From: Candidatus Omnitrophota bacterium
GTDB taxonomy: Bacteria > Omnitrophota > 4484-213
DNA: 35,361 nucleotides
Direction of reading: 5' to 3'
NCBI GenBank assembly: GCA_021158625.1
Contig: JAGGUG010000044.1
Span: forward strand, 1 to 35,361
The notes under the pieces were generated by a model that saw only the letters and a list, made by a program, of their open reading frames with translations, had not been told where the DNA came from and did no database searches. Positions 10,466-35,361 of the stretch are shown one piece after another; position 1 is the first letter of the stretch; each line of letters opens with the position of its first letter. Made by a program: the position numbers and the translations under genes.

Positions 10466-10516
10466 AACTTGGCTTTGCGGAGCAGGAAGTGCTTCGCAAA
10501 TTTGTTAGTTGAATTT

Positions 10517-11543: not shown

Positions 11544-11613
11544 TTGCCAGTCACCAGTCTCCAGTTACCAGTGGTTTTTCTGGTGACTTGGTGACCTGGT
11601 AACTGGTGACCTG
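11542..11613. repeat. Two-armed heptamer repeat scar (GTCACCA ... TGGTGAC)
   Basis: agttgccagtcaccagtctccagttaccagt / ctggtgacttggtgacctggtaactggtgacctg; same family as 3722-3794. Confidence 0.85.
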
Positions 11614-11618
11614 ATGTT

Positions 11619-12797: not shown

Positions 12798-12832
12798 CGA
12801 CAAAAATCGAGCCTTTATCCTCCGGGGGTCCT

Positions 12833-13717: not shown

Positions 13718-13766
13718 AAAATAGGTATGTCCGATGAGATAATCGAAGATTATATCAGGAGAACAG

Positions 13767-14918
13767 ATGAAGAAAGTAGTTTTAGCCTATTCTGGCGGTT
13801 TGGATACCTGTGTCTCTATAAGATGGCTTAGAGATAAGGGCTATGATGTCCTTGCTCTCCTTGCCGATTTAGGACAGAAAGCCAATTTCGAGCTCCTCAA
13901 AAAGAGGGCAATCTCGGCCGGGGCAGAAAAGGTTTATGTCTCTGATTTAAAGAAGGAATTTGTCCAGGATTTTATCCTGCCCAGTTTAAAGGCAGAAGCG
14001 GTTTATGAGGATTATCTTTTAACCACCGCTTTAGGGAGACCTCTAATTGCCAAAGAGGTTGTTAAAATTGCCCACAAAGAAAGAGCAGACTATGTTGCCC
14101 ACGGATGCACCGGGAGAGGAAATGACCAGGTTCGCTTTGAACTCTCCTATAAGATGTTAGACCCTCGTTTAAAGGTTATTGCCCCCTTGCGCGAATGGGA
14201 ATTTAACTCAAGAGAAGAAGAGATTGAGTATGCTAAAAAGAATGGTATTAGTTTGGATCTTAAAAAGAGTGTCTATAGCATTGATGAAAATCTCTGGGGG
14301 GTGAGTATTGAATGCGGAGAATTAGAGGACCCCTATAATGAGCCATCTGCCAATGCCTGGCAGATTGGTGCTCTGAGAGAGATTTCCAAACCTACTTATC
14401 TGGAGATTTATTTTGATAGAGGTATTCCGACTGACCTGAATAATAAAAGGATAGATACCCAGGAGCTAATTGTCAGGCTAAATAAAATAGGTGGAAAATA
14501 CGCTATTGGCAGAAAGGACTTGATTGAAGACAGAATTGTGGGAATTAAATCCCGCGAGCTCTATGAAGCCCCGGCAGCAGAGATTCTTTACAAAGCCCAT
14601 CACGCTTTAGAGAGCCTGATTTTGGATAAACAAACCCTGAATTTCAAGCACCTGATTTCTTTGAAATATGGCGAACTTATTTATAGTGGACTGTGGTTTT
14701 CTACCCTAAGAGAAGCATTAAGCAGATTTGTTGATTTTACCCAGGAGAAGGTGCAAGGGACTGTTCGGATAAAGCTCTCCCCGGGAAATTGCGAGATAGT
14801 CGGTAGGAAATCAAGATATGCTTTGTATAAAAAGGAATTGGCTACCTATGGCAAAGACAGCAAATTTGACCAGAAGGCCGCTGAGGGATTGATAAAGATT
14901 TTGGGAATGGGATATTAG
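13767..14918 (+). CDS. argG: Argininosuccinate synthase
   Basis: LAYSGGLDT, HGCTGRGNDQVRFE, YSIDENLWG and KSRELYEAP motifs. Confidence 0.97.
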   Translation: MKKVVLAYSGGLDTCVSIRWLRDKGYDVLALLADLGQKANFELLKKRAISAGAEKVYVSDLKKEFVQDFILPSLKAEAVYEDYLLTTALGRPLIAKEVVKIAHKERADYVAHGCTGRGNDQVRFELSYKMLDPRLKVIAPLREWEFNSREEEIEYAKKNGISLDLKKSVYSIDENLWGVSIECGELEDPYNEPSANAWQIGALREISKPTYLEIYFDRGIPTDLNNKRIDTQELIVRLNKIGGKYAIGRKDLIEDRIVGIKSRELYEAPAAEILYKAHHALESLILDKQTLNFKHLISLKYGELIYSGLWFSTLREALSRFVDFTQEKVQGTVRIKLSPGNCEIVGRKSRYALYKKELATYGKDSKFDQKAAEGLIKILGMGY

Positions 14919-14978
14919 GAAAGTTGACAGTAGGCAGTTGGTAGTAGGTAACTGTAGATTGACTTCCGGAGGCACAAA

Positions 14979-16361
14979 ATGACTACAAAAAAAATGTGGG
15001 GCGGGAGGTTTAAAAAAAAGACCGATTCGGATGTAGAAAGGTTTACTAAATCAATAGATTATGATTATAAATTAGCTAAATATGATGTATATGGTTCTTT
15101 GTTGCATGTATTCGTATTAAATGCGTGTGGATTTTTAACAAAGGAAGAGGAAAAAAGTATGTCTAATGCTCTTCGTAAGATATATAATGATATTGTAAGT
15201 GGGAAGTTTAAGTATAATAAAAGGAGTGAAGATATTCATACTGATATTCAAAATAAAGTAGAGAAAGAAGTTGGTCCTTTATCTCTGAAACTGCATACAG
15301 CAAGGTCAAGGAATGACCAGGTTCTTTTTGATTTAAAGCTTTTTTGCAGAGATGAATTACTTTATGTTGGGAAATTATGCAAAGAATTGCAGAATTCTAT
15401 ATTGGAAATTTGCGAAGAACATAAAGAAACATTTATTCCCGGCTATACGCATTTGCAGCATGCCCAGATTGTTCGTTTAAAAGATTATTTAGGAAGCTAC
15501 GCCGAGATGTTCAAAAGGGATCTGGATAGATTAGATAATACGAGAGAAAGAATAAGATTGACTTTGGGTTCGGGGGCCCTTGCCGGCACGCCTATTGGTT
15601 CTACTTTGTATCAGGAAATGGCGAAAAAATTTGTTCGGGAACATAAAGAGTTAAAAGAAATTTTCAGCACAGAACATATTGACAAAGTTTCAAATACATT
15701 GGATACGGTTAGCGATAGAGATTTTGTTATTGAAGTTTTATCGGTATTATCAATAATGGGTATGCATTTATCAAGATTTGCCGAGGACCTAATTATTTGG
15801 TCAACAAAGGAATTTGGTTTTGTGGAGATTGATGACGCCTTTGCTACCGGGAGTTCTCTGATGCCCCAGAAGAAAAATCCGGATGTTCTTGAATTAATAA
15901 GGGCCTATACTGGAACCCTGTATGGCAATCTAATGAGCGTTTTGACAATGATGAAAGGACTGCCGCTTACTTATAACCGGGATATGCAGTTGGATAAACC
16001 GCCATTGTTTAGTTCATTTGAAATAATAGAACAAGAGTTAAAAATTTTCCCCAAGCTTATAAAAACACTAAAGTGGAATAAAAAAACTATTGAAAAGGCA
16101 ATAGAAAACGATGAAACCCTGTATGCTACAGACCTTGTTTATTATCTTATCAAAAAGGGTATTGCGTTTAAGCAGGCGCACGACATTATTGGAAAATTGA
16201 TTAAATTTTCTTTAGATAGCAGCAGAAAGATAAAGGAAATGAGCAATATAGAGTTAAAGAGATTTTCTGACAGATTGAAACAGGAAGAGATAGTTAAATT
16301 GCTGGATCCTGAGACATCGGTTAAATCAAGAGAATCGGTTGTTAGAACAAGCAATGTCTAA
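14979..16361 (+). CDS. argH: Argininosuccinate lyase
   Basis: WGGRF, LHTARSRNDQ, PGYTHLQHAQ, GSSLMPQKKNPD and KGLPLTYNRDMQ motifs. Confidence 0.97.
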   Translation: MTTKKMWGGRFKKKTDSDVERFTKSIDYDYKLAKYDVYGSLLHVFVLNACGFLTKEEEKSMSNALRKIYNDIVSGKFKYNKRSEDIHTDIQNKVEKEVGPLSLKLHTARSRNDQVLFDLKLFCRDELLYVGKLCKELQNSILEICEEHKETFIPGYTHLQHAQIVRLKDYLGSYAEMFKRDLDRLDNTRERIRLTLGSGALAGTPIGSTLYQEMAKKFVREHKELKEIFSTEHIDKVSNTLDTVSDRDFVIEVLSVLSIMGMHLSRFAEDLIIWSTKEFGFVEIDDAFATGSSLMPQKKNPDVLELIRAYTGTLYGNLMSVLTMMKGLPLTYNRDMQLDKPPLFSSFEIIEQELKIFPKLIKTLKWNKKTIEKAIENDETLYATDLVYYLIKKGIAFKQAHDIIGKLIKFSLDSSRKIKEMSNIELKRFSDRLKQEEIVKLLDPETSVKSRESVVRTSNV

Positions 16362-17673
16362 TTTTAAATACAAAAGAAATCAACTATACTGCGAGGCTGT
16401 TCCTCTAAAGCAGATTGCTGAGAGCGCAGGGACACCTGTTTATATCTATAGCTATCAAAGTTTAGTTGGTAGATATAAGGAGTTAAAACAAGCATTTGCT
16501 TCTGCTCATCCACTTATCTGCTTTTCGGTAAAAGCAAATTCCAATCTAACAATTTGCAAGGTGCTTAGCGAGCAAGGAGCAGGTCTGGATATTGTTTCCG
16601 GGGGCGAACTTTATCGAGCAAAAAAAATCAAAGTCGATCCCAAAAAGATTGTTTTTGCCGGTGCAGGAAAAACAGAAGAAGAGATAAGAGAGGCGATTAA
16701 AGCAAAGATTTTGCTTATCAATGCCGAATCAGAACAAGAAGTAGAAGAGATTGATAGGATTGCCGGCGAATTAGGAAGGAAGATACGGGTTGGCTTACGG
16801 ATAAATCCTGATGTTCCCGGCGGAGGGCATCGCTATATTCAGACAGCCAAAGAAGAGAATAAATTCGGGATTTCCTTAAAAGAAGCAAAAGAGCTCTTTT
16901 TAAAGAAAGAGAAATTTTCCCATCTGAATATTTGCGGAATTCATTTTCATTTGGGTTCACAGATAACTACACCTCAGCCTTTTGTGAGAGCATTAAAAAA
17001 AATTGTTCCTTTAATCCAGGAACTCAAAAAGAAAGGAGTAGAGATAAGTTATTTAGACATTGGCGGCGGATTTTTTGGAGTGGCTAATAAATTTGCTCGG
17101 GCGATTCTGCCTTTGGTAAAAGGCTTAGAGATAAACCCCGTTAGAAGTAAGTCCCGATTTATGGGGACTGCTCCGGCTGAACATCAGGGGACTTCTAACG
17201 GGGTAAAATTAATATTAGAACCGGGGAGATTCTTGACAGCCGAAAGCGGGATTTTGCTGACCAAGGTGCTTTATATTAAGAAAAGAGAAGAGGGCAAAAG
17301 ATTTATTATTGTAGACGCCGGAATGAACGACTTTATTCGCCCTGCTTTGTATAACGCGTATCACGAGGTTATCCCTGTTGTCCGAAAACCGCTCAACCCT
17401 CAACCCTCAACCCTCAGCGATGTTGTCGGGCCGGTTTGTGAAAGTGGAGATTTCTTTGCCAAAGACAGAAATTTACCTTTGCTAAAAAGCGGAGACTTTT
17501 TGGCAGTAATGGAGAGTGGAGCCTATGGATTTGTAATGGCTTCTAATTACAACTCCCGTCCCCGCCCGGCTGAAATTTTAGTAAAAGAAGATAAATTTTA
17601 TCTGATTCGGGAAAGAGAAAGATATAGAGATTTAATCCGTGGAGAGTTAACTATGGAGGGTAGCCCTCCATAG
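16354..17673 (+). CDS. lysA: Diaminopimelate decarboxylase with two in-frame repeat inserts
   Basis: SVKANSN, DIVSGGEL, KFGI, HFHLGSQ, EPGR, GPVCESGD and MASNYNSRPR motifs; likely ATG 16354 overlaps the argH stop. Confidence 0.96.
   Translation: MSNFKYKRNQLYCEAVPLKQIAESAGTPVYIYSYQSLVGRYKELKQAFASAHPLICFSVKANSNLTICKVLSEQGAGLDIVSGGELYRAKKIKVDPKKIVFAGAGKTEEEIREAIKAKILLINAESEQEVEEIDRIAGELGRKIRVGLRINPDVPGGGHRYIQTAKEENKFGISLKEAKELFLKKEKFSHLNICGIHFHLGSQITTPQPFVRALKKIVPLIQELKKKGVEISYLDIGGGFFGVANKFARAILPLVKGLEINPVRSKSRFMGTAPAEHQGTSNGVKLILEPGRFLTAESGILLTKVLYIKKREEGKRFIIVDAGMNDFIRPALYNAYHEVIPVVRKPLNPQPSTLSDVVGPVCESGDFFAKDRNLPLLKSGDFLAVMESGAYGFVMASNYNSRPRPAEILVKEDKFYLIRERERYRDLIRGELTMEGSPP
17136..17203. 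mobile_element. In-frame CCCCGTTAGAAGT...ACTTCTAACGGGG element in lysA
   Basis: Perfect 13-bp IR flanked by TAAA on both sides; encodes PVRSKSRFMGTAPAEHQGTSNGV. Confidence 0.88.
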
Positions 17674-17684
17674 TTAATTAAGAA

Positions 17685-18674
17685 ATGCAGAGAATAAATT
17701 TCGTAAAAGCAGTTGCTTCGGGGAATGATTTTATAATTATTGATGCTACTCGCTACCCGCTACCCGCTACCCGTCTTTATAAAAAACTTGCTAAAGAACT
17801 TTGTAAAAGGAAATTTGGAATTGGCGCAGATGGACTCTTATTAGTTGAGCCCTCTCAGAAGGCAGATTTCAGGATGCGCATTTTTAATCCTGACGGCAGC
17901 GAAGCCGAGATGTGCGGGAATGGAGCGCGCTGTGCGGCACTACACGCTACACGCAAAAGAACACAAGAAAAAAAAATAAAAATAGAGACGAAGGCAGGAA
18001 TTGTAGAGGCGGAAATTCAAACCCGCTACCCGCAAAATATAAAGATAAAAATGCCGCAACCTAAAAATTTTAAACTTGATATTCCTCTAAAAATTGACAA
18101 CAAAAGCATATCAGTGAGTTTTGTTAATCTCGGTGTCCCACACGCAGTCGTCTTTGTTAAAAATTTAGAAAAAGTTGATGTTCAGAATTTGGGCAGAAAG
18201 ATTCGCGAGCATCAAGAATTTCAGCCCGAGGGAACAAATGTTAATTTCGTCCAGGTATTGACTGGCGAGACTGTCCGCATCAGGACTTACGAGCGTGGCG
18301 TAGAGGAGGAGACGCTTTCTTGCGGCACGGGGAGCGTAGCCGCTGCGATTATCGCAGAGCGCAAAGCGCAGAGCACAAAGCGCAAACTACCCCGAACAGC
18401 CCCGAACAGCCCCGAAGGGCAAGCCTACGGGGCAGGCAAGACTACGGGACAGGCAGAGCACAAAATCAACCCCGTGGGAAATTTTGCTAAGAACTCTCTG
18501 AATTCCAAAGGTGTATCTCACATAGCAAAGGTGATTTCTAAGAGGGTCAATGTGCACACACAAGGAGAAATATTAAAGGTTTATCTCGATGAGCAATTGA
18601 AGGATGTGTATTTAGAAGGAGAGGCGAGGATTATTTATTTTGGCAGTATAGTTAACGCAACAAAACAAGTCTGA
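17685..18674 (+). CDS. dapF: Diaminopimelate epimerase with multiple in-frame repeat inserts
   Basis: GNDF, GIGADG, NPDGSEAEMCGNG, GVPH, GTNVNF and YERGVEEETLSCGTG motifs. Confidence 0.96.
   Translation: MQRINFVKAVASGNDFIIIDATRYPLPATRLYKKLAKELCKRKFGIGADGLLLVEPSQKADFRMRIFNPDGSEAEMCGNGARCAALHATRKRTQEKKIKIETKAGIVEAEIQTRYPQNIKIKMPQPKNFKLDIPLKIDNKSISVSFVNLGVPHAVVFVKNLEKVDVQNLGRKIREHQEFQPEGTNVNFVQVLTGETVRIRTYERGVEEETLSCGTGSVAAAIIAERKAQSTKRKLPRTAPNSPEGQAYGAGKTTGQAEHKINPVGNFAKNSLNSKGVSHIAKVISKRVNVHTQGEILKVYLDEQLKDVYLEGEARIIYFGSIVNATKQV
18470..18546. mobile_element. Degenerate in-frame CCCCGT...GGG element in dapF
   Basis: ccccgtgggaaat ... atttctaagaggg flanked by TCAA on both sides; encodes PVGNFAK...ISKRV. 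Confidence 0.7.
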
Positions 18675-24925: not shown

Positions 24926-27157
24926 ATGAAAAAGAACAAAATAATATATTTATTCTTTCTCGGTCTACTAATTTCTCTTTTAGGAGATTTAAGGTCAGTC
25001 TACGCGCTGGATGAGCAACCTACTCGCCTCGCTGAGTCGGCGCTTGTCTCGGGGCGCTCGCCTCTCGGCGAAGCCGAGGAAAATCAGGGGAAGCGGGTTA
25101 AACAATCCACAAGCGTAAGTGAGGCAATGGCGCATTACAATTTGGCTAAGAAGTATTTTTTATCCGGAGAGTATACAAAAGCCCGCCAGGAATTTGGCTT
25201 AGCCGCCCAATTAGATCAGAGTAAACGCAAGTCCGTTTATCGCCTTTCCCGGATGTATCTAAAGAAAATTGAGGAATTAGAAAAGAAGAGGAAACAGACA
25301 GAGGCGAGAAAGAGATGGGAAAAGATGAGGGCGGAGAAGTTAAGAAAGCAAGCCGAACTCAAAGCCAGGCGCGAAGCAGAAAGGAAAGCCAGACAGGAAG
25401 CCGCGCAGAGGGCTAAGGAAGCCACACAAAAGAGAAGAGCTGAAGTTAGAGCCAGGAAGGAAGAGCTCAAGAACTACTATACCAAAGGCAAAATCCATTA
25501 TCACAAAGGACAATATCAAGAGGCGATTGAGGAATTTAAGAAAGTTTTAAGTTTAGACCCAGAACATAAGGCAGGGAGATATATTGAGCTTTCCTTGAAG
25601 GCGATTGAAAAAAGAAAGCAGAGAAAACTTTTAGCTCAGAAGAAGGCAGAGCAACAAGCCAAGAGACAAGAGGAAGTGAGACCTCCCTCTCAAGAGCGGG
25701 AGGTTAAACCGGGCGAGAAAGAAAGTCTGAAGGAAGAAATAGAGCGACTTAAGCGTCAGATTGAAGAAGAAAATACTCGACTTAGGCTCGAGATAGAGAA
25801 ATTGAGAGAATCCCAGGAAAAGGCAAAGGAAAGGGAGTTGAGGCCAAAGGTTGAGGGGATGTTAGCGAAAAAGGAGGCCTTGGCTCTGGAAGAAGCAAAA
25901 TTAAAGGCATTCGTTGCGGGTCTTCAGAAGCTTGAAGCCAGACAGAGGAGACTTAAGCGGGAGGCCGAAGTTAGGATGAGTTTTAACAAAAAGGAGAGAC
26001 TCAAAGCAAGGGAAAGAAGAATAAGAGAAGAAGAGGCTAAGCTTAAGCTCAAACTCAAGGAAGAAAAGAACGCTCTCAGAGCCCGGCTTGAAGATGAATC
26101 AAAAAGAAAATTGAACTCTCTCCTTGAGGAAAAAGAAATTTTTTTCATTAATCAACTTGAAGAATACAAGCGAATACTCCAGGAGAAAGAAATTCCCTCT
26201 GTGGTTCAATTAAAAGAGAAAAAAAAGAAGATTTGTGCCCAATTGGCAAGTCTCCAGGAAGAGAAAAAGAGGCTTGAAGAGCTAAAACGCTCAAGGGCTG
26301 AACTAAGGAAAAAATTAGAAAGGAAATTCCAGCGACAGATTAAAGAGAAACTCACTCCCGGGCCCTCACTTCGGGTTGAAGTTAAAGAGGAGGATGAAGA
26401 ACTCAAAGCCAATTTGACAGCTGTTAATGAGAAGATAAAAAGGGTAGAGAAGATAAAGAAAGAGATAGAAGAGGAGTTACTGAATGAGGAGAAGAAACAG
26501 CAGAAGCAGAAGGAAAAGGCTCTGAAGGAAGAGAAAGCGCGAATTAAGCGAGAGTTTGAAAGGCAAAAGACTCGATTGGCTCTTGAGTTCCAAAAGGAGT
26601 TAAAGGCAAATTTTCAGACCCGGCTTAAGGCTCTGGAAGCAGACCGTAGGACCAAAATTGAGTCAATCTTAAAAGAGGAAGAAAAAAAAGAGAAGTTGGC
26701 TTCTGAATCAGAAAAGAAGTTACTTCAGGCGATTCTCAGAAAGTTAGGAGAGGTTAAACAACAAAGAGTTCAGGCCCAGGATAGACTTAAGGTCATTGAA
26801 ACTCTACGAAGAGAGCTTGAGGCACAGAGGAAAGCCGAACTCAAAGCCAGGCGCGAAGCAGAAAGGAAAGCCAGACAGGAAGCCGCGCAGAGGGCTAAGG
26901 AAGTAGAAGCCCCACCCATAGAACCCCCGGCCGGGGAATACTTAATAAGCGAGGGCGATACATTAGAGATCTTTGTTTACCTTCCTGACCTTCCAGAAGA
27001 AGTCAGCGTCAACTTGGATGGCGAGATTTCCTATCCTCTAATTGGCACGCTCCAGGCGAAAGGAAAAACCATAGACCAATTAAAGGAAGAAATCAGTGAG
27101 AGATTATCTCAATTTATAAATAATCCCTATGTCTCATTAACGATAAAAGGAAAATAG
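24926..27157 (+). CDS. Exported TPR, long coiled-coil and C-terminal Poly_export (Wza-like) domain protein
   Basis: Signal-like N-terminus; two TPR-like units; ~450 aa of E/K/R-rich helix; YLISEGDTLEIFV...V.LDGEISYPLIGTLQAKGKTIDQL...NPYV. Confidence 0.75.
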   Translation: MKKNKIIYLFFLGLLISLLGDLRSVYALDEQPTRLAESALVSGRSPLGEAEENQGKRVKQSTSVSEAMAHYNLAKKYFLSGEYTKARQEFGLAAQLDQSKRKSVYRLSRMYLKKIEELEKKRKQTEARKRWEKMRAEKLRKQAELKARREAERKARQEAAQRAKEATQKRRAEVRARKEELKNYYTKGKIHYHKGQYQEAIEEFKKVLSLDPEHKAGRYIELSLKAIEKRKQRKLLAQKKAEQQAKRQEEVRPPSQEREVKPGEKESLKEEIERLKRQIEEENTRLRLEIEKLRESQEKAKERELRPKVEGMLAKKEALALEEAKLKAFVAGLQKLEARQRRLKREAEVRMSFNKKERLKARERRIREEEAKLKLKLKEEKNALRARLEDESKRKLNSLLEEKEIFFINQLEEYKRILQEKEIPSVVQLKEKKKKICAQLASLQEEKKRLEELKRSRAELRKKLERKFQRQIKEKLTPGPSLRVEVKEEDEELKANLTAVNEKIKRVEKIKKEIEEELLNEEKKQQKQKEKALKEEKARIKREFERQKTRLALEFQKELKANFQTRLKALEADRRTKIESILKEEEKKEKLASESEKKLLQAILRKLGEVKQQRVQAQDRLKVIETLRRELEAQRKAELKARREAERKARQEAAQRAKEVEAPPIEPPAGEYLISEGDTLEIFVYLPDLPEEVSVNLDGEISYPLIGTLQAKGKTIDQLKEEISERLSQFINNPYVSLTIKGK
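25350..26903 (+). repeat. Exact 72-nt direct repeat (25350-25421 and 26832-26903)
   Basis: Both copies encode AELKARREAERKARQEAAQRAKE with identical DNA, 1482 nt apart. Confidence 0.92.
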
Positions 27158-27210
27158 CGTTATAGCGTAATAAAGTTATAGATTTCAACTCAATAACCCA
27201 ATAACAAAGA

Positions 27211-27262
27211 AAGACCCTTATTTACCCTTATATTCCCTTATTCACCCTTATTTAGCCTTATT
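27211..27262. repeat. CCCTTAT array with a 10-nt period
   Basis: aagaccctta tttaccctta tattccctta ttcaccctta tttagcctta, followed by antisense ataagggg. Confidence 0.9.
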
Positions 27263-27303
27263 AAAATAAGGGGAGACAATAACCCAATAACACAATAACG
27301 AGT

Positions 27304-28521
27304 ATGCCTACTTTCACTTACAAAGCCCGAGATAGCTTTGGTGAACTTATCAGTGGGGCTATAGAAGGTGACAATAAGAAAGCCGTAGCCAAGAGCCTTA
27401 ACAGATTGGGTTATAGTGTTATCCAGATAAGCTTGCAAAAATCACTCCAACCAATCCTCACAGATTTTATCAAGGGTTTTCGTCCCATAAGTAAACAAGA
27501 AATAACCGTCTTTACCAGACAATTGGCTACCCTTAGTCGTTCGGGGATGGCTATATCCCCGGCTCTTTCCATAGCGTGTGAGCAGACCACCAATCCTAAA
27601 TTTCGCCTTATCTTAGGGGATGTGGTTAATCATGTCCAGGGGGGTATGAGCCTCTCAGAAGCCCTCTCAAAATATCCTGAGGTTTTCTCGGATCTGTTTG
27701 TAAATATGGTCAAAGTGGGGGAGACAGGTGGGATTTTAGATAAGGTCCTGGATAGACTGGTTACCTTAAGCACTCAGGAACTCGAAAGGAACACGCGCAT
27801 AAGATCAGCATTAATCTATCCTATAGTTCTGGTAGCTGTTGCCTTCTTGGTAGTAAATTTTCTTCTAATAGGAGTTCTTCCGAAGTTTGTTGCTGTATTT
27901 AGGGCATCTCAGGCGAGATTACCGCTGCCCACCCAGCTTATTCTGAGTTTTAGTTGGATTTTGAGGCATCTGTGGTTACCTCTATTGATTGGTGTGGGGT
28001 GCCTCGCAGTTTGGTTTAAGAGGTACATAAAACAACCTGCAGGAAGATACAGGTTTGATTCGAAGGTTTTAAAACTACCCCTGTTTGGTAAACTTTATAC
28101 TAAAATAATGATATCCCGTTTTACAGGTGTCCTCTCAGCGCTCATCGCCTCAGGAGTTCCCCTGCTTCAAGCCCTGGGCGTTGTGGAGAAGACCATTACC
28201 AATATGGTCATCCGCCGCATAGTTCAGAATATACGCACCTCCATCACTGAAGGACAATCTCTGGCCGGAGCATTTAAGACCAGTGGTTTCTTCCCGCCTA
28301 TGGTTGTCCAGATGATATCGGTAGGAGAAAAGACGGGCAAGCTCGATGAAATGCTTCGGGATATTTCTTCTTTTTATGACCCGGAGATAGAATACACGAT
28401 TAGAAATCTAACTACCCTCTTAGAACCATTTATGTTGTTAGCAATGGGGGCTATGGTTGCCTTCATCGCTTTGTCGGTGTTATTACCGATATTCAACTTG
28501 ATTAAAGTGTTCCGGGGATGA
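27304..28521 (+). CDS. pilC: Type IV pilus / T2SS platform protein PilC/GspF
   Basis: MPTFTYKARD, FTRQLATL, GETGGILD, ALIYP and VGEKTGKLDEML...LLEP motifs. Confidence 0.95.
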   Translation: MPTFTYKARDSFGELISGAIEGDNKKAVAKSLNRLGYSVIQISLQKSLQPILTDFIKGFRPISKQEITVFTRQLATLSRSGMAISPALSIACEQTTNPKFRLILGDVVNHVQGGMSLSEALSKYPEVFSDLFVNMVKVGETGGILDKVLDRLVTLSTQELERNTRIRSALIYPIVLVAVAFLVVNFLLIGVLPKFVAVFRASQARLPLPTQLILSFSWILRHLWLPLLIGVGCLAVWFKRYIKQPAGRYRFDSKVLKLPLFGKLYTKIMISRFTGVLSALIASGVPLLQALGVVEKTITNMVIRRIVQNIRTSITEGQSLAGAFKTSGFFPPMVVQMISVGEKTGKLDEMLRDISSFYDPEIEYTIRNLTTLLEPFMLLAMGAMVAFIALSVLLPIFNLIKVFRG

Positions 28522-28525
28522 GTAT

Positions 28526-28801
28526 AACCCTTATTTTCCGGGGATGAGTATGACCCCTATTTACCCTTATAGTCCCTTATTCTTTATTGAGGAAAACCCT
28601 TATTTAATAGAAGTCCCTTATTAAGAGAAAACCCTTATTTACCCTTATTTAATAAGAATCCCTTATTAAGAGAAAACCCTTATTTACCCTTATAGTCCCT
28701 TATTGAGGGAAGACCCTTATTTACCCTTATTTAATAGAAGTCCCTTAATTCGTCCTTATTGAAAATGAAAGAAAGACTTTATTCGCCCTTATTCACCCTT
28801 A
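28526..28801. repeat. CCCTTATT array
   Basis: About 20 imperfect units with mixed 10-nt and 15-17-nt spacing. Confidence 0.95.
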
Positions 28802-28808
28802 CGCCACT

Positions 28809-29264
28809 ATGAACGCAATAATGAAGAAAGGTTTTACTTTACTCGAGCTTCTAATCGTAATAAGTATAATCGCTATCCTCGCAGCTACGATGATTCCCAA
28901 CTTTATCGGCTTCGATGCAGAAGCAAAACTTGCTGCTACTCAAAGCAACCTTAATACCCTCCGCACTCGCATTGTTCTCTTTAGAACTAAAGAGGGACAT
29001 TATCCCGAAACTCTGGAAGAACTATTAGAGACCACCTATAGCGATATGGGAATAGAACGGCCATATCTGGATAGTATACCTGTGGAGTTCATCTCTTCAA
29101 AGCAGGGAAATGCTGATGTTGAGAACCAGACTTCCGAGGACCCCCTACCCGGAGACGGCGGCTGGGTCTATTTTGTAGACAAAGCAAAAGTAGTTATAGA
29201 CTGGGATATGCCCCTCGATTCAAAATGGGGAAAGTACGAGGGGGAGGTGCCATCGGAATGGTAG
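28809..29264 (+). CDS. Prepilin, GspG/PilA-like major (pseudo)pilin
   Basis: KKG|FTLLELLIVISIIAILAATMIP with Glu5; GHYP..LEEL. Confidence 0.9.
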   Translation: MNAIMKKGFTLLELLIVISIIAILAATMIPNFIGFDAEAKLAATQSNLNTLRTRIVLFRTKEGHYPETLEELLETTYSDMGIERPYLDSIPVEFISSKQGNADVENQTSEDPLPGDGGWVYFVDKAKVVIDWDMPLDSKWGKYEGEVPSEW

Positions 29265-29283
29265 TTCGTTATTGTTATAAACG

Positions 29284-29326
29284 AAGAACCCTTATTTACC
29301 CTTATTTTCCCTTATCTTCCCTTATT
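29284..29326. repeat. CCCTTAT array with a 10-nt period
   Basis: Four units followed by antisense ctaagggg. Confidence 0.9.
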
Positions 29327-29355
29327 AAAACTAAGGGGAGACAATAAATGACGCA

Positions 29356-29712
29356 ATGAACACAATAACAAACAAGGGGGTTGTGCTGTTAAGCGTTGTA
29401 ATTATTCTGCTGACCATAACCTTAATCGGTGGAAGCCTTGCCGCCTTTTTATCATCGGTTAATATCTCAACGTGCAATATAGCCGACCAAACAAAGGCGC
29501 TATACCTGGCTGAAGCAGGCATTGCTCATGCGATTCATAATCTCCGCACCGAGGCAGGAGAGGGTGGCATCCTGGATAAGACGATTGGACCCATTACTCT
29601 TGGAGAAGGAACCTATCAGGTTTCAGTGGATTTTGCCCAATCGCTGATAACCTCAACCGGGGAGGTGCGCGGAACAAGGCGAACACTCCAGTTTCAGTAT
29701 AAACCCCTATAG
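29356..29712 (+). CDS. PilX/GspK-like minor pilin
   Basis: KG|VVLLSVV without Glu5; KALYLAEAGI and ITSTG motifs typical of PilX N-terminal domains. Confidence 0.8.
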   Translation: MNTITNKGVVLLSVVIILLTITLIGGSLAAFLSSVNISTCNIADQTKALYLAEAGIAHAIHNLRTEAGEGGILDKTIGPITLGEGTYQVSVDFAQSLITSTGEVRGTRRTLQFQYKPL

Positions 29713-29737
29713 CGTTATAGGGTATAGTGTTATAGAC

Positions 29738-29955
29738 GAAGACCTTTATTTTCCCTTATTTACCCTTATTTAATAGAAGTCCCTTATTAAGAGAAAACCC
29801 TTATTTAATAAGAATCCCTTATTGAGGAAAACCCTTATTTACCCTTATAGTCCCTTATTGAGGAAAACCCTTATTTACCCTTATTTGATAGAAGTCCCTT
29901 AATTCGTCCTTATTGAAAATGAAAGAAAGACTTTATTCGCCCTTATTCACCCTTA
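29738..29955. repeat. CCCTTATT array
   Basis: About 15 units; the 3' 88 nt (29888-29975) are identical to 28734-28821. Confidence 0.95.
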
Positions 29956-29962
29956 CGCCACT

Positions 29963-30379
29963 ATGAACGCAATAACAAATAAAGGTTTTACCTACATCGA
30001 GCTTCTAATAACCCTGGTGATAATGGCGGTTTTGTTTGTCCCGATGATGCAAGTATTTTCCCATTTCCTCCATTCCACCGTGGTATCCCAGGATTTCATA
30101 ACCGCAACAAATTTAGCCAGATGGGAGATGGAGCGGGTCAAAAATCTGAATATGACCAAAGCCCAACTTAGAGAAGCGGGCGATAGCATATATCCGTCGG
30201 GTGAACCGCTTGAGATGAATAATGCAAAGTGGCGGATAAGCAGAAAGGTATTCAAAGAGACTGATCCTCTGGAGGTTCGTGTTTCTGTCTTCCATGACGG
30301 TGAACCCGACAGGCCCCTCGTGACCCTGGTGACGCTAATTGAGGATACGATTTGGGAGGAAATTCGCCCATTGGAATAA
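29963..30379 (+). CDS. PilV/GspI-like minor pilin
   Basis: KG|FTYIELLITLVIMAVL; ATNLARWEME. Confidence 0.85.
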   Translation: MNAITNKGFTYIELLITLVIMAVLFVPMMQVFSHFLHSTVVSQDFITATNLARWEMERVKNLNMTKAQLREAGDSIYPSGEPLEMNNAKWRISRKVFKETDPLEVRVSVFHDGEPDRPLVTLVTLIEDTIWEEIRPLE

Positions 30380-30384
30380 AGATG

Positions 30385-30516
30385 TTCCCTTATTCACCCT
30401 TATCAAGGAAGATCCTTATTTTCCCTTATCAAGGAAACTCCCTTATCAAAGGAAGTCCCTTATCAAAGGAAGCCCCTTATTTTCCCTTATCAAGGGACCC
30501 TTATTCACCCTTATCA
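30385..30516. repeat. CCCTTATC(AA) array
   Basis: About 10 units of the TC subtype. Confidence 0.95.
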
Positions 30517-30531
30517 AACCAAGAGGCAGAA

Positions 30532-31746
30532 ATGGTCTATCAACCCAAAGACCCCTTAGGTTTTACCCTAATTGAGCTACTGATTGCTATCGCCATATCG
30601 GTAGTAATTAGCGCGGCGATATACTTCAGTCTGAGTAGTGCCCTGGAGAGCTGGGGATATTCCCGGGACCATCTTGCTCTTCAGAAGGTTATTTCAGAGG
30701 TTATGGACGAAGTTGCGGACGGGACCTTCAGAGCATATGGACTAAAAGACAGTTTAGAAATACTATCAGCGAGCGGGACAAAGATAGAGTTTGTCCCCCC
30801 CTGGACCGACGATACCCATATGTTTATCTCTGGTGACCTAATTTATACCTTGAACCGTCGACCCAAGCCCGGGTCGGCAGTGCCAGTTGGAGAGGTTAAA
30901 TTCCCCGGCTCAGATGAGTATCGAACCATACCCGTAACTCTTGTTGAAACAGAATTTATAAAAGAACCTCAGGTTAAGATTGGCTTGGTGCCGCCTGAAG
31001 GGAGCCAACTTCGCTTTACCTACCATCCTGACCCCAAAACAAACCCCGATACAATAAAGACTATCTGGTGGGACCCGGAGGAGCAACAACTCTATTCAGA
31101 GGATATAGATGGGATAGAGAATATCTCTAGGAACCCTCTTGGAGTAAAGCTCACCGATTTTCGCCTGCGATACTACGATAACGCAAATAACCCGGTAGGC
31201 GACCAGGGCGGGCTCGACCAGAATACTCTGCTGACGGTCACCGGAATCGAGGTATGGATGAAGGCTGAACTTGGCCAATATTCACAAGAATTAGTGAGTT
31301 TCGTAAACCTGCGCAATTCACCAATGCGTAAAGGTTTCCTGACTTTAAGAGAAGGCACTAAATTTCCCATTCCTGACAGCCACAACATCCACACCCTTTT
31401 ATTGACCAACTTTTCGGGTGTAGGGAATCTGGACGAACTTCAGCTTGAAGCCACTCCATCCACAGGAAAGAGCTGGGGGGTAACTATAAAGTTTTCAAAA
31501 ACGGGTTCAGCTAAAGCCATAATAGAGACTCTTATTATAGAATATCCACCTGGCCATTCCATCTATACTGAACACCCTCGCTCAAGCGTTGAGCTGGGAT
31601 TGGATCTGCTTACCCTGGGTGCCAATGGCCTCTATGACTACGATGACGACCCGGACATCGAGGACTTTGTCCTGCTGAAGGATGAGGTGGTATTAGAGGT
31701 GAAGAGGATGGATATCGAAGGTGCCGGGCTTTTCGTTAGACCATGA
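30532..31746 (+). CDS. PilW/GspJ-like minor pilin with a leader copied from the four-helix-bundle gene
   Basis: MVYQPKDPLG|FTLIELLIAIAISVVI; GAGG RBS before ATG 30532. Confidence 0.85.
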   Translation: MVYQPKDPLGFTLIELLIAIAISVVISAAIYFSLSSALESWGYSRDHLALQKVISEVMDEVADGTFRAYGLKDSLEILSASGTKIEFVPPWTDDTHMFISGDLIYTLNRRPKPGSAVPVGEVKFPGSDEYRTIPVTLVETEFIKEPQVKIGLVPPEGSQLRFTYHPDPKTNPDTIKTIWWDPEEQQLYSEDIDGIENISRNPLGVKLTDFRLRYYDNANNPVGDQGGLDQNTLLTVTGIEVWMKAELGQYSQELVSFVNLRNSPMRKGFLTLREGTKFPIPDSHNIHTLLLTNFSGVGNLDELQLEATPSTGKSWGVTIKFSKTGSAKAIIETLIIEYPPGHSIYTEHPRSSVELGLDLLTLGANGLYDYDDDPDIEDFVLLKDEVVLEVKRMDIEGAGLFVRP

Positions 31747-32041
31747 AAAGACCCTTATTGAAGGAAGACCCTTATCAAAGGAAGTCTCTTATCAAGGGAA
31801 GCCCCTTATTTCCCCTTATCTCCCTTATTCACCCTTATCAAGGAAACTCCCTTATCAAGGGAAGACCCTTATCAAGGAAAAACCCTTATCTTCCCTTATT
31901 TTCCCTTATTCACCCTTATCCAAGAAAGTCCCTTATCAAAGGAAGACCCTTATCTTCCCTTATTTTCCCTTATCAAGAGACCCTTATCAAAGGAGGACCC
32001 TTATTTTCCCTTATCAAGAGACCCTTATTCACCCTTATCAA
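31747..32041. repeat. CCCTTATC(AA) array
   Basis: About 22 units; the longest array, directly 5' of the four-helix-bundle gene. Confidence 0.95.
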
Positions 32042-32055
32042 ACCAAGAGGCAGAA

Positions 32056-32610
32056 ATGGTCTATCAACCCAAAGACCCCTTAGGTTATAAGAAGCTCCTG
32101 ACCTGGAAACAGGCCGGCGAGATTTATCACAAGACAAAAGATTTTACCAAGAAATACCTCAATAGAACAACAGATAGAAGATTAATTGCTCATATGGATG
32201 ATTCCGCCCGGTCAGTTCAACGTAATATAGAAGAGGGTTATAAAAGGGCAACGACAAAGGAGTATGTTGAATTTCTTGGTTTCTCCCGCGCCTCTTTGGA
32301 AGAATTGAAGGGGGATGTTGAGGAGTTGAAAAGGGAATGGAAAGAAGGGGTAAGATGGGTCGATAAAGGGAAAATAGAGGAGTTGTTGGACCTTATTTAT
32401 GGCGAAGATTGTATGATGGGCAGGCAGATTGCATCTCTGGAGAGGAAGATGGTAGAGGAGAAGACTCTGCCGCAGAAAGAGATGATAATGAGAAGTTGGA
32501 AATTGGATAAATTGAGAGAGAAAAAGTTCTGGAGGTCTATTAAAGATAAATTTGGGCTTGAGAAGGATGAAAAAGGGAGGATAAGAAAGAATGATGATGA
32601 GAAAGAATAA
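32056..32610 (+). CDS. Four-helix-bundle protein (23S rRNA-IVP / TIGR02436-like family)
   Basis: GYKKLLTWKQA...HMDDSARSVQRNIEEGY.R...EYVEFLGFSRASLEEL pattern. Confidence 0.88.
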   Translation: MVYQPKDPLGYKKLLTWKQAGEIYHKTKDFTKKYLNRTTDRRLIAHMDDSARSVQRNIEEGYKRATTKEYVEFLGFSRASLEELKGDVEELKREWKEGVRWVDKGKIEELLDLIYGEDCMMGRQIASLERKMVEEKTLPQKEMIMRSWKLDKLREKKFWRSIKDKFGLEKDEKGRIRKNDDEKE

Positions 32611-32618
32611 GGAACAGA

Positions 32619-32820
32619 TTTCCCCTTATTTACCCTTATTAAGGAAACTCCCTTATCAAAGGAAGTCTCTTATCAAGGGAAGACCCTTATCAAGGAAAAA
32701 ACCCTTATCTTCCCTTATTTTCCCTTATTCACCCTTATCAAAGGAAGTCCCTTATCAAGGGAAGCCCCTTATTTTCCCTTATCTTCCCTTATCAAGAGAC
32801 CCTTATTCACCCTTATCAAA
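32619..32820. repeat. CCCTTATC(AA) array
   Basis: About 15 units directly 3' of the four-helix-bundle gene. Confidence 0.95.
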
Positions 32821-32833
32821 CCAAGAGGCAGAA

Positions 32834-33343
32834 ATGGTCTATCAACCCAAAAACGCAATAACTCCCGCCTGCCGGACGGGCAGGCAAAAACGCAATAACC
32901 CAATAACAAATAAGTGGCTATCAGTATTATTATTAGTGGTCTTCAGTGTCCTTTTCGCTACGGTTGCCTGTGCTGACGAAAAGGTATGGAGTGCTGGCGG
33001 AGATGAAACGACCTGGAGCGACGACGACAACTGGTTTCCGGCCGTTGAACCCAACAGTGAAGACGATGTCACCATAGATATGGAGGATGCCTCTGTTACT
33101 TGCACCGAGACCTTTAAAGCAAAGTCTATCGTTGTGGGTGGCAGAACGAGTTCGACCCTTACCAGCAACAACTTTGTCTACGGAACAGTAACGCCCGATT
33201 CGGCATCTGATGTGGCATTAGACAATAAAAAGGGCGGCACGATTATCCTGAAGGGTGCTGGAACGCTCACCCTGGGAGGTCAATATAGGAGTTCAGAAGA
33301 ATCTCTCATCTCCGAGCCGAGCTTTATGTTCTGGGTAAAGTAG
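32834..33343 (+). CDS. Small secreted acidic beta-rich protein (WS..NW motif, G8/adhesin-like) with a mosaic repeat-derived N-terminus
   Basis: Hydrophobic signal ending ACA|DEK; WSAGG...WSDDDNW.P..EP...DDVTI; GAGG RBS before ATG 32834. Confidence 0.7.
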   Translation: MVYQPKNAITPACRTGRQKRNNPITNKWLSVLLLVVFSVLFATVACADEKVWSAGGDETTWSDDDNWFPAVEPNSEDDVTIDMEDASVTCTETFKAKSIVVGGRTSSTLTSNNFVYGTVTPDSASDVALDNKKGGTIILKGAGTLTLGGQYRSSEESLISEPSFMFWVK

Positions 33344-33820
33344 AAGCGGATCTCCGCGGATAGCGACGCAGAAAGACGCGGATAGAATAATGGGAAAGTT
33401 ACTATATGAAAAGGAGTCGTACGAGATACGCGGCGCGTGTTTTGCAGTTTGGAAAGAATTCGGCAGTGCTTTTAAAGAGACAGTAATTGAAAAAGCCTTG
33501 GCAAAAGAGTTTAAGGAGAGAGGATTGTCTATAGATCGCCAGAAACGGATAGATATATTCTATAGGGATGAAAAAGTGGGCGTTTATATTCCAGATTTTG
33601 TAATAGATAATAAAATTATTATAGAGATTAAGGTTAAACCTGTATTGATTCAAGAAGACAGGCGACAGTTTTGGCATTACCTTAAAGGTTCTCATTATCG
33701 TCTTGGGTTTTTGGTCAATTTCGGTACGAAGAAACTTGAGATTGTTAGGAGGGTATATGATTCTGCGCGCACAAGATATCAGCGTATATCCGCGTAGATA
33801 TCCGCGTCTATCTGCTTCTA
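33341..33820. mobile_element. Inverted-repeat-bounded cassette carrying the GxxExxY gene
   Basis: tagaagcgga versus tctgcttcta (9/10 complementary); agacgcggata versus tatccgcgtct (11/11); tandem (ACGCGGA)/(TCCGCGT) units. Confidence 0.6.
33390..33797 (+). CDS. GxxExxY family protein (PD-(D/E)xK nuclease-like fold)
   Basis: LLYEKESYEIRGACFAVWKEFGSAFKETVIEKAL, PDFVIDNKIIIEIK, QFWHYLK and GFLVNFG; the signature is the variant GSAFKETVI. Confidence 0.9.
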   Translation: MGKLLYEKESYEIRGACFAVWKEFGSAFKETVIEKALAKEFKERGLSIDRQKRIDIFYRDEKVGVYIPDFVIDNKIIIEIKVKPVLIQEDRRQFWHYLKGSHYRLGFLVNFGTKKLEIVRRVYDSARTRYQRISA

Positions 33821-33848
33821 AATAACCCAATAACAGGAGGTAAAAGCG

Positions 33849-35361
33849 ATGAAAAAGAAAATTTGGATGTTGGTGTTAATAGCAATGGTCATCTTACTTG
33901 GCGTCCACTATCTTTACGCCGGCCAGCTCCTCTTTGACGGTGTTCCCGTGGACATCACCACGACCGACAATGAGGACCTGGTCATTGTCCCCGGCAGTGG
34001 TGGTAATACTCAAATAGGCGATGCCACCGGCGCAAATACCCACGCCACCTCAAACGACGATTTGCATGTGACAGGCGTTTTAGAAACCGACGGTGTCCTT
34101 TATTCTGACTCAGGCATAATTTCAGGTTCCACCATCCGCTCGGACACCGACTCAACAGATTCGCTCGGTTCAAGCTCAACTGCCTGGTTGAACCTCTATG
34201 TAGATTCAGTCAAGACTGTATCCGGCACGAACCTTATTCTTCTCCCAACCTCGGCATATACCATAATCGGCGATGCTGGCTCAGCAGGCCATGTCTCAGC
34301 CAACGACGACCTCTTTGTATCAGGCGCTTTGGAGGTTGACGGCACAATCTACGCAGACGGCGCGATTACCGCTGGGTCAAATATCATTTCCGATACCGAC
34401 TCAACCGACTCGCTCGGTTCCTCTAATATCGCCTGGTTGTACCTCTATGTAGATACTATCTCCACAACATCAGGGACAGACCTTTCGTTATCTCCAGCAT
34501 CAGGAAGCGGCGTGGATGGCTCGGTAACCCGTTCTGCCGCAACAGGTAACGAAATTGCCTACGACCTCGCCGCCACTGTAGAGAAAGCCTCGGGAGACTT
34601 TACCGGCCTCAGACTCAATGTCACAGATACCGCCTCACCCGGGCTGCTTAAACTGCAAGACCTGCAAGTCGGGGGGACTTCCATATTGCAGGTTTATGAA
34701 GACACAAACTCTGCCAACTATGGCCGTCTATCAGTCGGCTCTGCCCCCTGGGATGGCGAAGCATCAGGACACTTTGTTGGCTCCTCAGACGGCACCCAGA
34801 TTGCCGTAAATGCACCGGATACCTTTACCGGAAATCTTATTGACTTACAAGTCGCCGGTGTTTCCAAATACAAAGTTAGTTATGAGGGTATAGTTACCCA
34901 GGTTGGCTCCCAGACCGTTACTGGAAATATCGTTCCCTCGGCAGATTCAGAGTATAACCTCGGCTCAACCTCGGCTGCCTGGTTGAATCTTTATGCCGAC
35001 AATATCAAGACAGTGAGCGGCACGAACCTTATTCTTCTCCCAACCTCGGCATATACCATAATCGGCGATGCCGGCTCAGCAGGCCATGTCTCAGCCAACG
35101 ACGACCTCTTTGTCTCCGGAGCCGCAGAAGTCGACGGCACCCTCTACGCCGATGGCGGAATAACCGCCACCACTGTAAATGCCACCACCTTTGATACCAA
35201 TGTTGCTGCTGCCGGCCTCACTCTCTCCGGGACGACCCTTGCTGCTGACGGCACCGATACCGACATCAACATCGCGATTACCCCCCAGGGCGCAGGCGAG
35301 GTGGATATCAGCAAGGTCGATATCGATGGCGGGACTATTGACGCGACAACCATCGGGGCGA
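33849..35361 (+). CDS. Large exported S/T/D/G-rich repeat protein (adhesin/fibre-like), truncated by the window end; absent from the ORF track
   Basis: AGGAGG RBS; MKKKIWMLVLIAMVILLGVHYLYA signal; open to the window end; repeats SDTDSTDSLGSS..AWL.LY.D and IGDA....NDDL.V.G..EVDG. Confidence 0.88.
   Translation, partial: MKKKIWMLVLIAMVILLGVHYLYAGQLLFDGVPVDITTTDNEDLVIVPGSGGNTQIGDATGANTHATSNDDLHVTGVLETDGVLYSDSGIISGSTIRSDTDSTDSLGSSSTAWLNLYVDSVKTVSGTNLILLPTSAYTIIGDAGSAGHVSANDDLFVSGALEVDGTIYADGAITAGSNIISDTDSTDSLGSSNIAWLYLYVDTISTTSGTDLSLSPASGSGVDGSVTRSAATGNEIAYDLAATVEKASGDFTGLRLNVTDTASPGLLKLQDLQVGGTSILQVYEDTNSANYGRLSVGSAPWDGEASGHFVGSSDGTQIAVNAPDTFTGNLIDLQVAGVSKYKVSYEGIVTQVGSQTVTGNIVPSADSEYNLGSTSAAWLNLYADNIKTVSGTNLILLPTSAYTIIGDAGSAGHVSANDDLFVSGAAEVDGTLYADGGITATTVNATTFDTNVAAAGLTLSGTTLAADGTDTDINIAITPQGAGEVDISKVDIDGGTIDATTIGA
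34223..35113 (+). repeat. 96-nt near-exact direct repeat (34223-34318 and 35018-35113)
   Basis: One synonymous mismatch (gct/gcc); 795 nt apart and in frame. Confidence 0.9.

Follow-up and report, generated by a model that had tools for sequence, protein, structure and literature searches.

What connects a small gene to the repeats that surround it is the question raised by contig JAGGUG010000044.1 of a Candidatus Omnitrophota bacterium (assembly GCA_021158625.1), of which we analysed positions 1 to 35,361, referred to below as the window. A coding sequence (CDS) for a four-helix-bundle (4HB) protein lies there between two near-duplicate arrays of the heptamer CCCTTAT, among the pseudopilin genes of an operon. 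A preliminary description had noticed that this CDS contains the reverse complement of its own flanking units, and had proposed either that the mRNA folds back on the arrays like an excisable intervening sequence (IVS) cut by RNase III, or that it carries an internal template for telomerase-like copying. Our results show that the antisense matches in the window are literally true and statistically empty. They also indicate, by comparison with homologous sequences, that in the clade to which this protein belongs a subfamily-specific unit lies around and inside the gene, an association that is real and maintained at the nucleotide level.

The four strings on which the idea was built, and their counterparts in the arrays, are present letter for letter. 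Positions 32362-32376 match an array unit at 14 of 15 positions, with one extra base, and 32573-32585 at 12 of 13; 32345-32354 and GAATAAGG at the stop codon match the arrays more weakly, and a repeat search added 32366-32381 (14/16) as well as an 11-mer (AAGGGAAAATA/TATTTTCCCTT) that has two or more exact partners in the arrays. The reverse complement of the core heptamer, ATAAGGG, has no exact copy in the CDS. The CDS 8-mers whose reverse complement occurs in the arrays number 16, against 9.9±3.8 in 500 synonymous shuffles (6.8% reach the observed value) and 7.0±3.8 in 500 codon-order shuffles (4.2%). The best local alignment of the CDS with the arrays scores 20 against 17.2±2.1 (reached by 14.6% of shuffles), or against 17.0±2.2 when only the gene's own flanks are used (10.5% of 200 shuffles), and flank-derived unit 7-mers occur three times against 1.26±0.99 (9.9% of 1000 shuffles). 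Folding of 31747-32833 gave -289.7 against -281.5±7.2 kcal/mol, with 14% of 50 synonymous shuffles as low, and 143 CDS-array pairs in the minimum-energy structure against 141±19 (44% reach), codon-order shuffles behaving alike. Across the window tests, shuffles reach the observed values in 4-46% of trials. What had been taken as special to this CDS is equalled by shuffled K/E/G-rich coding sequence in about 5-15% of trials, and its fold, for which a comparison with codon-shuffled controls had been suggested, is no better than those controls. A whole-length RNAduplex calculation of the CDS against the arrays returned a single inflated structure and was not used.

The encoded protein scores 47.7 bits with PF05635 (Pfam; cut-off 33.8) and 42.4 bits with TIGR02436, 'four helix bundle protein' (NCBIfam; cut-off 24), the profile alignment covering positions 1-75 of 106 only. 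An AlphaFold2 model built on 30 relatives (predicted local distance difference test, pLDDT, 86) has helices at 15-34, 41-62, 67-96 and 104-134, a fifth at 140-166 and a small hairpin at 168-178. Its top Foldseek matches are Xcc0516 (2gsc; E 9e-5, target-normalised TM score up to 0.88), BT_0352 (2rld) and Avd (4dwl), a protein of diversity-generating retroelements (DGRs); 8ub7 is matched as well. Judging from the profiles and the model, the window protein is a PF05635/TIGR02436 four-helix bundle with an Xcc0516/BT_0352-like fold. The family motif is GxxRxxxSxxxNxxE (PMC3936711, accessible part), and S53, N57 and E60, which belong to its S-x3-N-x2-E part, are invariant across the 30 sequences of our alignment A2. 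The extra fifth helix and the tail of the protein's subfamily are basic. The antisense segments had been placed after the conserved helices; this holds for the second cluster, in the tail beyond the fifth helix, but not for the first, which lies in the loop between helices 3 and 4. Rfam finds one tRNA in the whole window and no match in 27000-33900, so the gene is not within an rRNA gene, and PADLOC finds nothing.

The search for relatives returned 106 proteins at E≤0.001 among 552 candidates, the nearest being 60-73% identical over about 97% of the length, with names from Omnitrophota and Elusimicrobia metagenome-assembled genomes (MAGs). We compared the DNA of 28 loci: the window, 12 close loci and 15 more distant ones sharing the motif SLEELKGD. 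A full-length member of the subfamily occurs in one of 401 genomes of the phylum, the window's own, and in none of the viral contigs. Since the neighbours in 11 homologue loci (28 open reading frames, ORFs) are unrelated housekeeping genes, the 4HB gene moves as a cassette. Nearly every close homologue has CCCTTAT-like units beside its start or stop codon. Counted on either strand, CCTTAT and CCCTAT occur 62 times per 4094 nt within 200 nt of the ORF and 49 times per 32860 nt elsewhere, a roughly tenfold density near the gene, with near exceeding far in 11 of 12 loci, for a motif set that was picked after the flanks had been inspected, which counts against this figure. Arrays also flank the gene in the more distant loci, and the unit differs by subfamily: CCCTTAT in A, ATCCTTAT in B, ACCCTTA[A/T/C] in C, TCCCTTAA in D and, in E, GTTACA upstream and TGTAAC downstream, a CCTTA core being common to the units of four of the five. 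In the 100 nt upstream of the 24 loci of subfamilies A-D, CCTTA occurs 50 times and TAAGG 7 times (downstream, 35 and 7), and by locus the pyrimidine strand dominates upstream in 17 and the purine strand in 2, with 5 ties. The unit is conserved in relatives whose proteins are 45-75% identical and whose MAGs carry the labels Omnitrophota, Elusimicrobia, Saccharibacteria and Planctomycetia.

The same unit recurs within the ORFs. The ORFs of subfamilies A and B, 13 in all, contain 31 copies of ATAAGG, where synonymous shuffles give 14.7±3.0 and none of 1000 reaches the observed count. The hexamer uses both frames that avoid TAA (ATA-AGG and xAT-AAG-Gxx), the sense CCTTAT appearing only twice; the helix 3-4 loop accounts for 16 of the 31 copies and the tail for 10, with four in each in L026 and three in the loop of L016. 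When units were defined from the flanks alone and compared with 500 synonymous shuffles per subfamily, own units reached 10.2 per kb of ORF in subfamily A (45 vs 15.2±4.1), 12.4 in B (34 vs 13.3±3.6), 21.8 in C (119 vs 27.0±5.6) and 13.1 in D (20 vs 3.6±2.2), counts attained by 0/500 shuffles in each case, and 1.2 in E (2 vs 3.4; 79% reach). The unit sets of the other subfamilies gave 0.2-2.9 per kb in A, 0.4-6.6 in B, 0.2-11.5 in C, 0.7-7.2 in D and 0.6-2.4 in E; these values are mostly 0.2-3.9, with A's set at 6.6 in B and 5.5 in C as exceptions, the C and D sets sharing one unit and the C set including two AT-rich 7-mers from one locus. An own-versus-other 8-mer matrix was dominated by the amount of array per flank and was replaced by these unit counts and by alignment tests. 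The variants ATAAGGG and ATAAGGA stand at 15:1 in the ORFs of subfamily A (leaving out the window and L027, in which neither is present) and at 2:13 in those of B, the flanks giving 14:0 and 6:18. The glycine codon of the conserved ELKGD follows the flank unit in 3/3 loci of subfamily D; we make no claim on it because the agreement in subfamily C is limited to 3/8 loci. The check by covariation in homologues, which the preliminary description had put forward, came out in its favour: internal purine segments track the flanking repeat, and units of the own subfamily are enriched, those of others not.

The three matches in the window fall in alignment columns 101-104, 107-111 and 199-204, where two to four relatives have an exact unit. 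The window's GGGGTAAGA corresponds there to GGGATAAGG, its GATAAAGGG to GATAAGGG and its GGATAAGA to ATAAGG. Exact ATAAGG stands at columns 103 and 106-107 in L016/L026 and L015/L016/L018/L026, respectively, and at columns 202-203 in L026, L030 and L031. Since the matches coincide with unit-bearing columns of relatives, they are most likely decayed copies of the family repeat unit. Two metagenome loci, L040 and L042, hold in-frame inserts TLNQTLNEPLNGTLKGSFKGEIKGDLKG in the helix 1-2 loop, in which pyrimidine units (ACC CTT AAC) are followed by purine units (TTA AAG GGT), that is, an inverted array that is translated.

Complementarity between ORF and flanks is more evident in the homologues. 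Of the 28 loci, 12 reached p≤0.025 when the ORF body was aligned antisense with its own flanks, and 8 of these are among the 13 closest. The ORF loop of L028 is complementary to the downstream array at 81% over 53 nt and to the upstream array at 80% over 49 nt. Complementary ends surround the ORF in L031 (flanks 82% complementary over 38 nt), L046 (a terminal inverted repeat, 88% over 25 nt), L047 and L023, and in the ORFs of subfamily C an in-frame purine array is followed, after a spacer, by a pyrimidine array, with nested helices predicted. Because flank-matched units sit in the homologue ORFs, fold-back potential can be seen as a family trait and its IVS-like reading as reasonable. The proposal is plausible in this sense for the family, with the 53 nt of L028 and the subfamily-matched units, and does not carry over to the copy in the window, where complementarity is largely lost. 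Further downstream in the window, a gene of the GxxExxY family (PF13366, PD-(D/E)XK) at 33390-33797 is enclosed by 53-nt arms (33332-33384 and 33777-33829) that are 75% complementary; they consist of GCGGATA/TATCCGC units, the 3' arm runs into the final codons of the gene, and the stem, an IVS-like architecture outside rRNA, is retained in minimum-energy and centroid folds. Two intergenic hairpins, at 11540-11620 and 3715-3792, consist of (CCAGTCA)n/(CTGGTGA)n, a heptamer array followed by a reverse-complement array (z -6.0 and -4.0).

The arrays of the window (Table 1) are themselves unusual in number and orientation. CCCTTAT occurs 85 times against 8.2±2.8 expected. Between 27215 and 32816 there are 77 units on the plus strand, in seven spacers of plus-strand genes, and a single one on the minus strand, at 27266; the operon, on the plus strand, encodes PilM/N, PilO, a secretin, T2SS-F and four or five pseudopilin-type proteins. 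The units are spaced at 10 or 17 nt around the 7-nt core, i.e. not head-to-tail. In the rest of the genome (1.18 Mb in 128 contigs, 90% complete), outside the window's contig, CCCTTAT is at background level. The genome has a further 477 short tandem arrays, among them 158 with a period of 7, 87 with one of 14 and 26 with one of 21, and a survey of it and of window positions 1525-18455 indicates that the unit differs in almost every spacer, the CCCTTAT arrays being the longest. The pattern CCCTTATNNNCCCTTAT was found in 12 other genomes of 400, with 1-4 matches each, a reversed control pattern giving about 10 single matches; no gene of the 4HB subfamily lies within 1.5 kb of any match in those genomes, some matches being coding coincidences, and the pattern is absent from the four closest relatives (84-96% complete). 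Contigs assembled from four DNA runs end at the arrays, which makes array length unreadable. A run from a different study has contigs on the pilin gene, on ORF 32834 in part and on the GxxExxY gene, and none on 31752-32720, and since no contig of that run bridges this interval the gap is uninformative on the presence of the cassette. A promoter and terminator scan of the arrays found no convincing element. A G-quadruplex on the purine strand would fit the motif (GGG plus 7 nt), but subfamilies B and E have no G-runs. Another idea is mimicry of the 3' end of 16S rRNA, which in this genome (...GGATCACCTCCTTT) has only CCTT in common with the repeat unit. At 29265-29358 and 27160-27305 the last CCCTTAT unit pairs with the Shine-Dalgarno-like TAAGGGGAG before the next gene (z -2.5 and -1.4), and the predicted hairpin could possibly sequester the ribosome-binding site.

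Table 1. Positions of the 4HB gene, its internal units, the CCCTTAT arrays and the module copies in the window.
Feature	Position	Strand	Basis or score
CDS of the 4HB protein (23S rRNA IVS protein family), 184 aa	32056..32610	+	PF05635/TIGR02436 profiles, predicted fold
Two internal purine-strand units, most likely decayed, GGGGTAAGA (EGVR) and GATAAAGGGAAAATA (DKGKI), in the helix 3-4 loop	32345..32381	+	
Internal unit, most likely decayed, AAGGGAGGATAAG (EKGRIR), in the C-terminal tail	32573..32585	+	
Stop-codon region TGATGAGAAAGAATAAGG, 78% complementary over 18 nt to array stretch CCTTATTCACCCTTATCA	32595..32612	+	
Upstream array, 21 exact CCCTTAT units, 10-/17-nt spacing, ending in ribosome-binding stretch AACCAAGAGGCAGAA	31747..32055	+	
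Downstream array with 14 exact CCCTTAT units, oriented like the upstream array and nearly a duplicate of it	32611..32833	+	
CCCTTAT array upstream of the T2SS-F gene	27205..27262	+	
CCCTTAT array (TTA-type units) upstream of pseudopilin gene 28809	28520..28808	+	
Short CCCTTAT array, last unit pairing with TAAGGGGAG	29265..29330	+	z -2.5
CCCTTAT array, near-duplicate of 28520-28808, upstream of pseudopilin gene 29963	29735..29962	+	
Array with copy of the 4HB ribosome-binding site and first 43 coding bases, now the 5' end of pseudopilin gene 30532-31746	30380..30574	+	
Third module copy (array end, ribosome-binding site, ATGGTCTATCAACCCAAA) heading ORF 32834-33343	32800..32857	+	

The cassette seems to have left copies of its 5' module in neighbouring genes. 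The block formed by the array end, the ribosome-binding site and ATGGTCTATCAACCCAAA is present three times, before pseudopilin gene 30532, the 4HB gene and ORF 32834, and an 18-mer of it has three occurrences genome-wide, all within the window. The copies in pseudopilin 30532 and ORF 32834 extend over the first 6-10 codons of the 4HB gene. The leader of pseudopilin 30532 accordingly reads MVYQPKDPLG/FTLIELL, with an N_methyl motif. Since the N-terminus MVYQPKNPxGY (MVYQPKDPLGY in the window) is conserved in the 4HB subfamily across a 30-sequence alignment, MVYQPKDPLG is native to the 4HB gene and was acquired by the pseudopilin; it is absent from the pilin homologues L002, L003 and L005, whose leaders differ, and the distant pilin-homologue loci L002-L004 have no arrays. 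Recombination between arrays would have placed the module ahead of the two neighbouring genes. The junction in pseudopilin 30532 is exactly the G/F prepilin cleavage site. A 70%-identical 4HB homologue on an Elusimicrobia MAG contig (L015) is also directly followed by a prepilin-type gene with an N_methyl motif, which could reflect either chance or a favoured neighbourhood. The 5' coding part of ORF 32834 contains a 13-pair G+C-rich hairpin (GCCTGCC...GGCAGGC, 32861-32891) between two AACGCAATAAC repeats resembling leader codons of other pseudopilins.

The explanation to which we incline, tentatively, is an IVS-like mechanism outside rRNA, in which purine and pyrimidine units form stems on one transcript and the matches in the window are worn copies of the unit. 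The 4HB clade marked by SLEELKGD moves from one unrelated host gene to another and takes arrays of a 7-8-nt unit with it. Its flanks carry the pyrimidine strand as sense and its ORF mostly the reverse complement, in the helix 3-4 loop and the tail, with units read in two frames and kept beyond what protein sequence and codon usage account for. The cassette would then act as a 23S-rRNA IVS placed outside rRNA: purine units in or beside the ORF would pair with pyrimidine arrays on the same transcript. RNase III, and possibly the 4HB protein too, would act on the resulting long and imperfect stems, which would keep the RNA of the selfish gene distinct from that of the host operon. A transcript-level role is favoured by the strand bias of the flanks, the conservation of the unit across phyla, the precedent of the family, the GxxExxY stem and the RNase III gene that is present in the genome. 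In the window, with direct arrays and with a drift of one or two bases in each of the three internal units, pairing is no longer distinguishable from chance. Several results weigh against this explanation. None of the five window tests exceeds chance, the direct flanking arrays include no long up/down inverted pair enclosing the ORF, and the RNA of the upstream array folds like shuffles (z -0.03). The sense strand folds lower in 13 of 22 flank segments, with a mean difference of -0.5 kcal/mol, which amounts to no preference. The best-aligned internal hairpin (subfamily C, seven sequences) has an unfavourable RNAalifold covariation term of +1.26, with double changes in 4 of 19 pairs and the pairs mostly invariant. 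Subfamily E ORFs have no enrichment of internal units, and the covariation, as far as these sequences tell, rests on few deep clades and not on many independent events. In loci whose flanks contain purine arrays, ORF and flanks also share units in the same orientation (p≤0.025 in 9 of the 28), and repeat spread therefore fits as well as pairing.

Such neutral spread, by slippage and template switching into tolerant hydrophilic parts of the protein in the other loci, with chance alone at work in the window and complementarity without function, is to our mind somewhat unlikely, and yet it covers much of the evidence: the window matches are as expected from K/E/G/R codons (AAG, GGA, GAA, AGG) facing a pyrimidine-rich array and are not significant, loop length ranges between 13 and about 45 residues in close relatives, the unit spacing in L026 (10, 12, 12 and 12, 10, 11 nt) avoids the TAA frame as under coding constraint only, same-orientation sharing is significant in the loci just mentioned, there is neither a fold-energy strand asymmetry nor clear compensatory change, and in-frame palindromic inserts are known in Rickettsia (PMC10969869, accessible part). 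Harder to accommodate are the conservation of the unit across phyla at such protein identities without constraint, the strongly biased orientation of the flanks relative to the gene (50:7), and the coincidence of the window's three matches with unit-bearing columns. A wider reading, which we judge unlikely, would see in the SLEELKGD clade one partner of a selfish pair of protein and repeat. The pentamer of each subfamily would recognise its own 7-8-nt unit, which would be kept in arrays around the gene as well as within the ORF, with a folded transcript or single-stranded DNA acted on by the protein and RNase III and with the cassette seeding recombining arrays that rewrite host 5' ends; if true, the pair would have supplied the pseudopilin's leader peptide here. 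The units could also be recognition sites of the 4HB protein itself, iteron-like or autoregulatory, each subfamily binding its own unit in DNA or RNA, in which case the window protein would prefer CCCTTATNNN repeats over ATCCTTAT or TGTAAC units. We consider this improbable. The units do change together with the protein, subfamily by subfamily, the 10-nt period equals one helical turn, the fold resembles that of Avd, part of the DGR ribonucleoprotein reverse-transcriptase complex (4dwl, 8ub7), and the tail and fifth helix are basic, but short CCCTTAT arrays occur in other genomes of the phylum without such a gene within 1.5 kb, and a strand bias of the flanks is unnecessary for binding to duplex DNA. 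It is quite improbable that the arrays are simply 5'-leader elements acting on translation, as an unstructured pyrimidine platform or as anti-Shine-Dalgarno copies, with the internal matches irrelevant. This would suit the 77 of 78 units on the sense strand in seven spacers of one operon, the unstructured array RNA, the pairing of the last unit at 29265-29358 with TAAGGGGAG upstream of a start codon (z -2.5) and the translational role proposed for TAACTGA heptamer arrays (PMC4679880, accessible part); it would leave the units inside relatives' ORFs and the arrays downstream of stop codons unexplained, and AAGAGG, the ribosome-binding site in the 4HB module, pairs poorly with CCCUU. Least credible of all is the telomerase-like proposal, in which an internal purine segment of the mRNA would template iterative reverse transcription and so build the arrays. 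The family resemblance to Avd and the match between ORF units and flanks in relatives are what it has to offer. The window contains no reverse transcriptase, and reverse transcriptase families have no match among the 28 neighbouring ORFs scanned in 11 homologue loci. The single reverse transcriptase of the genome (C56:2616-3887) lies on another contig beside a true Avd (NF033474, 80.9 bits, cut-off 80) and is therefore part of a DGR, the window protein has no match to the Avd model NF033474 at E≤0.01, and the internal units of the window are less perfect than the arrays that they would have templated.

Other parts of the genome contain related elements. The contig with the DGR-like locus (C56:1-6283, L083) has Avd at 1840-2184, the reverse transcriptase on the opposite strand, a truncated GxxExxY ORF at 1402-1626 and GCGCAATTA-type repeats upstream of Avd. 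A second 4HB gene (87 bits) at C105:4711-5010, on the minus strand, has two in-frame TAA codons and CCAGTGA/CCGGTGA-type heptamer arrays on both sides. The 16S rRNA gene (L084, C77:6500-12500) contains a group I intron (61 bits) near its 3' end, with a 3' exon ending in ...GGATCACCTCCTTT.

Knowledge of PF05635 proteins goes back to the first descriptions of rRNA intervening sequences. The domain was still called functionally uncharacterized in the accessible part of a 2024 preprint (10.1101/2024.02.27.582315). One PF05635 clade with a subfamily-specific repeat around and inside the gene, in several phyla, points to a partner at the nucleic-acid level, and such cassettes could remodel host operons, as suggested by a pseudopilin gene that starts with the cassette's ribosome-binding site and first ten codons. 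A literature search, which covered main texts without supplements and few subscription journals, returned no description of subfamily-specific units common to flanks and ORF.

The closest known systems are the rRNA IVSs with an S23p ORF in Leptospira and Coxiella, which are alike in the protein family, in the small selfish ORF and in the short tandem units upstream. In Coxiella, tandem heptamers lie directly upstream of the S23p ORF in a strain-variable number and RNase III cuts at the first (PMC4990558, accessible part). The same source describes the complementary ends of rRNA IVSs that are cut by RNase III, whereas the flanks in the window are direct arrays, not inverted ones. The window gene further differs in lying outside rRNA, and its family in having units also inside the ORFs and a unit specific to each protein subfamily. 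Avd has the same fold (4dwl, 8ub7) and is itself part of a ribonucleoprotein; unlike it, the window protein does not match the Avd model and has no reverse transcriptase or template/variable repeat nearby, the genome's DGR being elsewhere. Short tandem intergenic repeats include the cyanobacterial STRR (short tandemly repeated repetitive) sequences. TAACTGA heptamer arrays of Beggiatoaceae, cyanobacteria and Bacteroidetes are likewise intergenic, in forward orientation near start codons (PMC4679880). The window arrays resemble both in being short tandem intergenic units near starts and oriented towards the downstream ORF, but their CCCTTAT core is spaced by 3 or 10 nt, they are confined to one operon of the genome, and the unit belongs with one particular gene subfamily, within whose coding sequence it also occurs. 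Rickettsia palindromic elements and in-frame miniature inverted-repeat transposable elements are similar in that a self-complementary repeat is translated in protein loops (PMC10969869); the subfamily C relatives hold an in-frame purine-/pyrimidine-array hairpin of this kind, and the window ORF only single, most likely decayed units. In contrast to those discrete elements of about 150 bp, the cassettes described here carry arrays of a 7-8-nt unit that match their own flanks, with inserts at the same positions across a whole protein clade.

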